DNA from: Escherichia coli
Lineage (GTDB): Bacteria; Pseudomonadota; Gammaproteobacteria; Enterobacterales; Enterobacteriaceae
Length of the DNA stretch: 4,159 nt
Reading direction: 5' to 3' (one strand)
Assembly (NCBI RefSeq): GCF_003334255.1
Contig: NZ_QOWU01000110.1
Numbering within the stretch: position 1 is the stretch's first letter; each line of letters starts with the position of its first letter. Of the stretch, positions 2,105 to 2,152 are shown piece by piece. Below the pieces are notes generated by a model. It made no database searches and had not been told where the DNA came from. It saw nothing but the letters and a program-made list of their open reading frames with translations. The translations under genes were made by a program, and so were the position numbers.

Positions 2105-2152
2105 GGCGCACACAATCGAAACGGAGTGGAGATTGTATAAGTGCGCACTTCG
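2105..2152. other. oriT: Putative oriT: imperfect inverted repeat followed by palindromic nic-like core AAGTGCGCACTT
   Basis: Arms gcgcac-acaatc (2106..2117) and gattgtataagtgcgc (2131..2146) form an inverted repeat with a 4-nt bulge. The 12-bp perfect palindrome aagtgcgcactt (2139..2150) contains AAGTGCG, resembling the RSF1010 nic region GGTAAGTGCG/CCCT. It lies between divergent mobA and mobC, as in RSF1010. Confidence 0.6.

Follow-up and report, generated by a model that had tools for sequence, protein, structure and literature searches.

Mobilisable plasmids of the MOBQ4 group were defined by Garcillan-Barcia et al. in 2019 and comprise MOBQ41, with the Rep_3 plasmids pIGWZ12, pSE11-6 and pE2022_4, and MOBQ42, with the ColE2-type colicin plasmids (PMC6856555). 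In that study, the cloned 178-bp region between mobA and mobC of pE2022_4 was mobilised by R64drd11 when the parent plasmid supplied MobA, MOBQ4 plasmids were mobilised about 1000-fold less efficiently in trans than in cis, and deletion of mobC reduced mobilisation by 0.6-1.5 log, so that mobC is not essential (PMC6856555). Between the oriT regions of MOBQ41 and MOBQ42, which are cross-recognised, 10 of 178 positions differ, and splitting the 178-bp region at nt 70/71 abolished transfer and left sub-fragments that were inactive in trans (PMC6856555). The published delimitation of the 178 bp does not name a nick, hairpin tiers or a palindrome (PMC6856555), and the searchable literature yielded no MOBQ4 plasmid whose nick had been mapped biochemically.

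More is recorded for other relaxases of the MOBQ class. In R1162, initiation requires the arm of the repeat proximal to the nick, and termination requires the whole repeat (PMC5863519). For pSK41, the core is common to the oriT mimics and the adjacent hairpin gives specificity (PMC4993578). The MOBQ nic consensus of Francia 2004, in the form quoted in PMC3832669, is NWACCNNTAAGTGCGCCCTYNN. The MOBQ3 plasmid pIP501 has, by description, nested inverted repeats IR-1 and IR-2 with overlapping left halves, its relaxase TraA cleaves 5'-GpC-3' within the nic site, and its oriT and the promoter of its relaxase operon overlap (PMC4981023).

The window analysed here, meaning the whole stretch of 4,159 nucleotides of Escherichia coli DNA, represents a circle of 4,082 bp, as its opening 77 bases recur at its end. 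It is 100% identical to the E. coli plasmid NZ_LR890408 and 99.9% identical to pSE11-6 (NC_011411), pE2022_4 (KT693143) and dozens more; 600 PLSDB records match the plasmid, nearly all of them from Escherichia, Salmonella and Shigella. RefSeq places three genes on it, for a relaxase, MobC and a Rep_3-type initiator. The backbone combines a MOBQ4 relaxase, a small MobC and a Rep_3 initiator with iterons in about 4.1 kb, and the relaxase protein is WP_001029343.1, the accession listed for pSE11-6 (PMC6856555 Table S2). The plasmid is a MOBQ41-group mobilisable plasmid of the pSE11-6/pE2022_4/pIGWZ12 type, and its oriT is the same element as the 178-bp region described for these plasmids, with no sequence difference. 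No oriT annotation was present in the plasmid records inspected. The genes and regions of the plasmid are as follows.

3984-4082 joined to 1-2061, minus strand, start at 2061: mobA/mobQ relaxase gene (RefSeq), 719 aa, N-terminus MAIYHLSMKIISR
2062-2239, plus strand: mobA-mobC intergenic region of 178 bp, bounded by the gene coordinates and corresponding to the experimental oriT of MOBQ4 plasmids (PMC6856555)
2240-2494, plus strand: mobC, relaxase accessory protein (RefSeq), 84 aa, divergent from mobA
2845-2930: iterons
3027-3728: Rep_3-type initiator (RefSeq)

A first-pass annotation, made from the letters alone, had proposed an oriT candidate with a perfectly palindromic nic-like core between divergent mobA and mobC. 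The oriT call is correct, and the element was already known at 178-bp resolution: cloned from a 99.9% identical plasmid, the region makes a vector mobilisable (PMC6856555), and the RefSeq coordinates place it between mobA, which starts at 2061 on the minus strand, and mobC, which starts at 2240 on the plus strand. The description of the core also held. The 12-mer AAGTGCGCACTT at 2139-2150 equals its own reverse complement, and the core is the MOBQ nic motif, since the window has a single copy of TAAGTGCGC, at plus-strand positions 2138-2146, and TAAGTGCGCACTT agrees with the consensus core TAAGTGCGCCCTY at 12 of 13 positions, the sole mismatch being A for C at +2 relative to the predicted nick. 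The elements of the site are listed below; here and throughout, a slash within the core marks the nick.

2096-2109, plus strand: left block GCCCCGCAGGGCGC, conserved, overlapping the outer left arm, with a weak GC-rich mini-hairpin possible
2106-2111, plus strand: outer left arm GCGCAC, complementary to the nic core GTGCGC
2112-2117, plus strand: inner left arm ACAATC, forming a perfect 6-bp inverted repeat with 2131-2136
2118-2130, plus strand: hairpin loop GAAACGGAGTGGA of 13 nt in the predicted fold
2131-2136, plus strand: inner right arm GATTGT
2137-2140, plus strand: ATAA spacer, a bulge between hairpin and core that is unpaired in the predicted fold
2141-2146, plus strand: nic core GTGCG/C, with the nick predicted between G2145 and C2146
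2139-2150, both strands: the perfect 12-bp palindrome
2146-2156, plus strand: 3' flank CACTTCGTGAT, the signature of an oriT subtype, which carries the conserved block past the palindrome

The segment GCGCACACAATC (2106-2117) is complementary to GATTGT (2131-2136) followed by GTGCGC (2141-2146), with ATAA (2137-2140) left unpaired between them. The inverted repeat 2106-2117/2131-2146 that had been described as flanking the core is thus present, but the nic core (2141-2146) doubles as its outer right arm, so that repeat and palindrome overlap. Folded as single-stranded DNA, 2100-2155 reaches -12.1 kcal/mol (z = -3.5), and none of 200 shuffled sequences was as stable. We do not claim the mini-hairpin at 2096-2109, which reaches only -4.2 kcal/mol and for which a seemingly compensatory variant folds at -1.8. 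CCC..GGG elements resembling the left block were seen in many relatives.

An alignment of the 178 bp from the window, ColE9-J, pF95-7 and Pseudomonas pLM12P1 showed two invariant blocks, GCCCCGCAGGGCGC (2096-2109) and TAAGTGCGCACTTCG (2138-2152), with the variable hairpin between them. The left block is identical in all four sequences, and both blocks are kept down to relaxases of 45-49% identity. ColE9-J, a MOBQ42 plasmid, shares with the window the left block, stems, ATAA, core, palindrome and 3' flank, and differs from it in having a ColE2-type replicon, a colicin operon and about 10 substitutions in the 178 bp, two of which fall in the loop (2124 and 2129) and none in the stems, bulge or core.

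How the published split at nt 70/71 relates to these elements depends on the end from which the region is numbered. If nt 1 abuts mobA, the split falls at 2131/2132, within the inner right arm; if nt 1 abuts mobC, it falls at 2169/2170. With nt 1 next to mobC, the inactive fragment 2062-2169 would contain the whole hairpin and the core, so that more sequence would be required in 2170-2239. The first-pass annotation had named failure of a cloned 2100-2160 fragment to confer mobilisation as the result that would refute it; mobilisation in trans is weak and the published sub-fragments failed in trans, and such a test therefore needs caution.

To place the site in its family, upstream regions were gathered from 11 plasmid relatives and 80 genome contigs, whose relaxases are mostly 45-55% identical; the site counts given here refer to 66 non-redundant relatives. 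On the strand opposite the relaxase gene, a near-universal design was found that consists, in order, of CGCAC, a 5-9 bp stem enclosing a loop of 3-9 nt, ATAA, GTGCG/C and CCTT. ATAAGTGCG is present in 52 of the 66 sites and GTAAGTGCG in five. Downstream of the nick, all 66 sites have C at +1 and T at +4, position +2 is C in 56, A in eight and T in two, and position +3 is C in 50, A in seven, G in five and T in four.

The inner stem showed double, compensatory changes at all six of its pairs across the relatives, and 77% of inner-stem cells were paired, compared with 71% after shuffling and 20-51% when the partner was slid. In pF95-7, whose relaxase is 85% identical, AAACTC and GAGTTT replace ACAATC and GATTGT, and both flanks are kept. 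The survey shows that the hairpin evolves fast and that the core is fixed, a pattern on which, according to published work, oriT specificity rests in pSK41-type systems. The outer stem, in which the upstream CGCAC pairs with the nic core across the ATAA bulge, is perfect in 43 of the 66 sites. A core change to GTGGG in a Roseovarius plasmid is matched by the arm CCCAC, and a change to GTTGCG in three sites by the arm CGCAAC; a change to ATGCG in one site has no matching change in the arm. The outer arm is missing in about five lineages and in RSF1010. Counting in the MAFFT alignment gave no double changes in the outer helix, the informative rows being mis-registered on the left; with the register corrected, there are two compensated core variants and one uncompensated. 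From these comparisons, pairing of the arm with the nic core appears moderately supported. A description of the outer pairing or of the palindromic subtype was not found in the searchable literature.

We consider it very probable that 2096-2156 is the working core of the oriT of this MOBQ41 mobilisable plasmid. The 13-nt loop, far longer than the 3-4 nt of most relatives, counts against this explanation.

The relaxase is of the corresponding type. MobA scored 248.7 bits against the NCBIfam model MobQ NF041496, whose cutoff is 200, and matched NES (PDB 4HT4) with E=1.6e-27 and MobA of R1162 (PDB 2NS6) with E=1.9e-11; these two are the closest solved structures, and its relaxase domain is nearer to NES than to R1162 MobA. 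Residues Y25, E87, H125, H133 and H135 are invariant in an alignment of MobA relatives, and Y25 together with H125, H133 and H135 provides the catalytic tyrosine and the histidine triad.

The nicks of pSK41 and RSF1010 have been mapped, at GTGCG/C. Plasmids pSK41, pGO1 and pLW1043, which encode Nes, share with the window the relaxase gene, a (G)CAC arm, the hairpin, ATAA, GTGCG/C and the divergent gene; in pSK41, the order is nes leftward, GCGAACG-GAA-CGTTCGC and ATAAGTGCG/CCCTTAC on the top strand, and then the divergent small gene. Unlike in the window, the stem of pSK41 measures 7 bp and closes a GAA loop, the outer arm measures 4 bp, and the flank CCCTTAC makes the 12-mer palindromic at five of six pairs; pSK41 is conjugative and its Nes works in trans, whereas MobA of MOBQ4 prefers cis. 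The sequence CCAGTTTCTCGAAGAGAAACCGGTAAGTGCGCCCTCCC, which we take to be the minimal oriT of R1162/RSF1010, occurs exactly in 121 IncQ-type records, and in one of these mobA, mobB and repB lie to its left on the opposite strand and mobC to its right on the same strand. RSF1010/R1162 (MOBQ1) shares with the window the core TAAGTGCG/C and the mobA-oriT-mobC arrangement, and has a hairpin with a GAA loop. It differs in lacking the CGCAC outer arm, in a TAA spacer, in a CCCTCCC flank that leaves the 12-mer palindromic at four of six pairs, in its more distant relaxase, and in that RSF1010 MobA is efficient in trans (PMC6856555). The pIP501 oriT is similar in its nested repeats and GpC cleavage site; unlike the window, pIP501 is a conjugative Gram-positive plasmid.

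In the window, mobA lies on the opposite strand and is read in the direction leading away from the site, mobC diverges on the other side, and the inner stem ends 9 nt before the predicted nick, compared with 9 nt in pSK41 and 8 nt in RSF1010. Because the topology is the same as in pSK41 and RSF1010-type plasmids, the plus strand would, by homology, be the one nicked, with the cut predicted between G2145 and C2146. From this homology and from GpC cleavage in pIP501 (PMC4981023) we infer where exactly the nick falls, which strand carries it and which way transfer runs.

What the palindrome adds to such a site was assessed separately. Shuffled versions of the 4,082-bp plasmid contained a mean of 1.0 palindromes of 12 bp, with at least one in 61% of the shuffles, and the real plasmid contains three; as about one is expected per plasmid, we rejected the palindrome as significant evidence by itself. 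Five of the six pairs in the family consensus 12-mer, AAGTGCGCCCTT, are self-complementary to begin with, and the window is one base away from it: A for C at +2, where the consensus reads CCCTT, turns the 12-mer into a perfect palindrome. The 12-mer is self-complementary at all six pairs in six of the 66 sites. Perfect 12-mers recur in the Pseudomonas plasmid, where tblastn and alignment put the relaxase at 45-49% identity, and in two contigs of Clostridia; the close relatives of these contigs have CCGTT or CCATT. Conservation covers more than the 12-mer: the motif spans about 21 nt, TATAAGTGCG/CACTTCGTGAT, and forms an asymmetric block. In the searchable literature, the exact 12-mer AAGTGCGCACTT was met in a single paper, on an unrelated subject.

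A metagenome scan for TATAAGTGCGCNNTTCGTGAT yielded at least 126 sites in at least 120 contigs. The pattern held the TTCGTGAT flank fixed and left +2 and +3 free, and the overall frequency of the subtype lies outside its scope. Among the matches listed, the two free positions read AC in 125 of 126 and CC in one, and there were at least 58 distinct hairpin and flank contexts, many of them with unrelated stems. We had considered CACTT a sporadic, neutral variant at +2, and dropped this idea in view of AC in 125 of the 126 listed sites with the TTCGTGAT flank. On these matches, CACTTCGTGAT is a subtype of the 3' flank that is both conserved and widespread. By pairwise relaxase identities, plasmids bearing CACTTCG were not shown to form a clade.

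A function of the symmetry itself would be expected if the palindrome were a duplex site for a dimer, either MobC or a MobA that represses the mobA and mobC promoters. Proteins that bind as dimers typically have palindromic sites, the 12-mer does not vary among MOBQ41, MOBQ42, pF95-7 and the Pseudomonas plasmid and is present in 125 of the 126 listed metagenome sites of the CACTTCGTGAT subtype, in pIP501 and pBBR1 the MOBQ relaxase represses promoters overlapping the oriT (PMC4981023), and GCGCAC recurs at 2223-2228, near mobC. We nevertheless regard selection for such a site as improbable. The conserved block is asymmetric past the palindrome, with TAT on the 5' side and CGTGAT on the 3' side, the 12-mer is imperfect in 60 of the 66 relatives with the same architecture, mobC is dispensable (PMC6856555), and a scan of 2000-2300 found neither promoters nor terminators, including no sigma-70-like promoter. 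The A at +2 in the window also breaks a potential pair of G2105 with C in an extended outer stem, and relatives with CCCTT carry no compensating change at -5; the two observations together give no sign that symmetry itself is selected. On these comparisons, the best reading of the palindrome is that of a side effect of the nearly symmetric consensus core within one conserved subtype, and it has no demonstrated role.

Strand choice was examined with a covariance model, R1, built from 51 sites with every MOBQ4 sequence excluded, and both strands of the window were scanned with filters off. On the plus strand, 2106-2152 scored 34.7 bits (E = 1.6e-8) over the full length and with the full structure. 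The minus-strand reading of the palindrome (2167-2137) scored 14.4 bits, with a rough E of about 0.004 and the inner hairpin deleted, and a minus-strand GTGCG/CCCT that abuts the hairpin (2131-2100) scored 5.1 bits (E=1.3). The family model favours the plus strand by about 20 bits; at 14.4 bits, the minus strand may be weakly recognised. No hairpin was found 5' of the minus-strand copy of the core (fold z = +1.3), where G replaces the invariant T at -8 and there is no TAA spacer, and the pseudo-arm GTGCAT (2161-2166) that R1 used on the minus side occurs in MOBQ4 only and not in the wider subtype. We rejected the minus-strand GTGCG/CCCT as a second nick, given its score and its lack of a spacer.

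The palindrome is not the strand selector: the 5' hairpin and ATAA exist on the plus strand only, so that the asymmetry that decides the strand sits in the hairpin and the spacer, and the ATAA spacer, missing from the minus-strand readings, is the main asymmetry of the site. The view that the nic motif reads the same on both strands consequently failed, as the recognised motif is asymmetric, with T at -8 and the (A)TAA spacer on the plus strand only. The accompanying proposal, that strand choice rests outside the core, agrees with the difference of about 20 bits; as a consequence of the palindrome it does not stand, because it is class-wide behaviour (PMC5863519, PMC4993578), and strand choice by a flanking hairpin is the normal rule for this class of relaxase.

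It is accordingly very unlikely that MobA nicks either strand, with transfer in both directions, or that a relaxase dimer cuts both strands. Such cleavage would fit the 14.4 bits of the minus-strand reading, the GTGCG/CCCT that directly follows the hairpin on the minus strand, the NES-DNA crystal, in which the nic GC stacks on that of a second molecule and for which a dimeric model was floated (PMC4176350), and pBuzz, which, as cited in PMC6807383, is a plasmid with two inversely oriented oriTs. Of the two minus-strand sites, however, one has no 5' hairpin and the other, at 5.1 bits, no TAA spacer; the T at -8 is replaced by G, and the pseudo-arm is limited to MOBQ4. Termination in R1162 needs the whole repeat (PMC5863519), and transfer of the minus strand could therefore not be closed. 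It is barely credible that palindrome and repeat arose by chance and that the nick is made at another place in the 178 bp, for although about one 12-bp palindrome is expected per plasmid and the nick is assigned by prediction, the plasmid's only TAAGTGCGC lies here, the family model gives E = 1.6e-8 and the hairpin z = -3.5, and neither block changes even where relaxase identity falls to 45-49%.

We therefore return to 2096-2156 as an oriT core that is used on the plus strand. In the mechanism that we propose, MobA would bind the hairpin, with its inner stem 2112-2117/2131-2136, together with single-stranded ATAAGTGCG on the plus strand, and Tyr25 would cut between G2145 and C2146 and stay covalently attached to the 5' end at C2146. 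The coupling protein and pore of a helper plasmid, IncI1 R64 being the best, would then transfer the plus strand 5' to 3', so that mobC would enter first, the replicon next and mobA last. When the hairpin plus core is met again, re-joining would end the transfer.

The base-level nick, the two-tier hairpin and the CACTTCGTGAT subtype are absent from the searchable literature, and their description is an incremental advance of little importance beyond annotation. What is gained in practice is that the nick is predicted to the base and that the site is described, as arm, hairpin, ATAA and GTGCG/C, in a form reusable for the annotation of oriT; cryptic 4-kb plasmids of this kind are among the commonest in clinical E. 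coli. We also considered, as an unlikely extension, that in NES-like MOBQ origins pairing of the core with CGCAC may act as a switch that hides or presents the nick, and that the palindrome of the CACTTCGTGAT subtype may engage a second relaxase subunit or the opposite strand. If true, this would bear on the unexplained strong cis preference of MOBQ4 relaxases.

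The upstream arm of the oriT region, which lies in the 178-bp gap between the divergent genes mobA and mobC, can be paired with the nic core. In most relatives, a conserved CGCAC arm is complementary to the core GTGCG(C) across an ATAA bulge, an observation that concerns the window together with the related loci L012, L017, L032, L036 and L039. Where the core reads GTGGG, the change is compensated by the arm CCCAC, and the core GTTGCG is likewise compensated by CGCAAC; the arm is absent from RSF1010 and about five lineages. No description of this outer pairing was found in the searchable literature. 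The features of the window considered here are:

168-179, 12-bp perfect palindrome TCAGTGCACTGA within mobA
2096-2109, left block GCCCCGCAGGGCGC
2106-2111 and 2141-2146, arm and core of the outer pairing
2223-2228, third GCGCAC copy (CCGTGCGCGATG on the minus strand), 12 nt before the mobC start codon
2757-2801, 13-14-bp repeats GTTTTTAAGATCTT, 3.4 copies
2845-2930, iterons AGGTAATATGATTTAAGGTAA of 21 bp, four copies, upstream of rep
3726-3739, 14-bp perfect palindrome TAAAATCGATTTTA, overlapping the rep stop codon
3917-3947, 3.1 copies of the 10-bp repeat TCGAAGAACA, downstream of rep

The left block is identical across MOBQ41, the colicin-plasmid group MOBQ42, the plasmid pF95-7 and one Pseudomonas plasmid with a relaxase of just 45-49% identity. 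Within the block a weak mini-hairpin (-4.2 kcal/mol) can form, overlapping the outer arm, and CCC..GGG elements resembling the block sit 5' of the arm in many Clostridia relatives. Read on the minus strand (2100-2114), the complement of the block is GATTGT-GTGCG followed, across the would-be nick position, by CCCTGCGGGG. This reading matches the canonical GTGCGCCCT at 9/9 positions and immediately follows the hairpin, without a TAA spacer; the family covariance model, built without MOBQ4 sequences, gives it only 5.1 bits, which is not significant. The hairpin loop (2118-2130), in which two of the differences between MOBQ41 and MOBQ42 are located, has 13 nt in both groups and 9 nt in pF95-7, compared with 3-4 nt in most relatives. 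In Pseudomonas pLM12P1 (L008, 100-390), the nic and left blocks are identical to those of MOBQ4, although the small gene adjoining oriT shares the strand of the relaxase gene instead of diverging from it.

Positions 1-77 of the window are an exact 77-bp repeat of positions 4083-4159, and the window is a circular plasmid of 4,082 bp opened within mobA. On the metagenome contigs L102, L111, L124, L140, L142 and L144, two copies of the nic 21-mer occur about 4.07-4.12 kb apart; these contigs are over-assembled circles or head-to-tail dimers of MOBQ41-size plasmids.

A contig of about 4.1 kb from a Clostridiales MAG (SFGY01000080, L015) and one of about 2.1 kb from Bradyrhizobium sp. BRP22 (NZ_JADYVX010000092, L016) carry an oriT identical to that of the window and a relaxase 98% identical; this is most likely an E. 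coli MOBQ41 plasmid, contaminating or mis-binned in these assemblies. MobA/MobL relaxase genes were also seen on two contigs binned as Nitrososphaerota archaeon MAGs (L040 and L089), which are probably mis-binned bacterial plasmids; the L040 site consists of a canonical hairpin and ATAAGTGCG, with CCCTT after the nick position.

Besides that at 2139-2150, the plasmid's perfect palindromes are TAAAATCGATTTTA and TCAGTGCACTGA. The arrays at 2757-2801 and 2845-2930 are consistent with the origin described for pIGWZ12-type plasmids, which is A+T-rich and contains iterons. The GCGCAC copy near mobC, kept in pF95-7 and reading GCGTAC in the colicin plasmid ColE9-J, may be a contact for a regulator or the relaxase.
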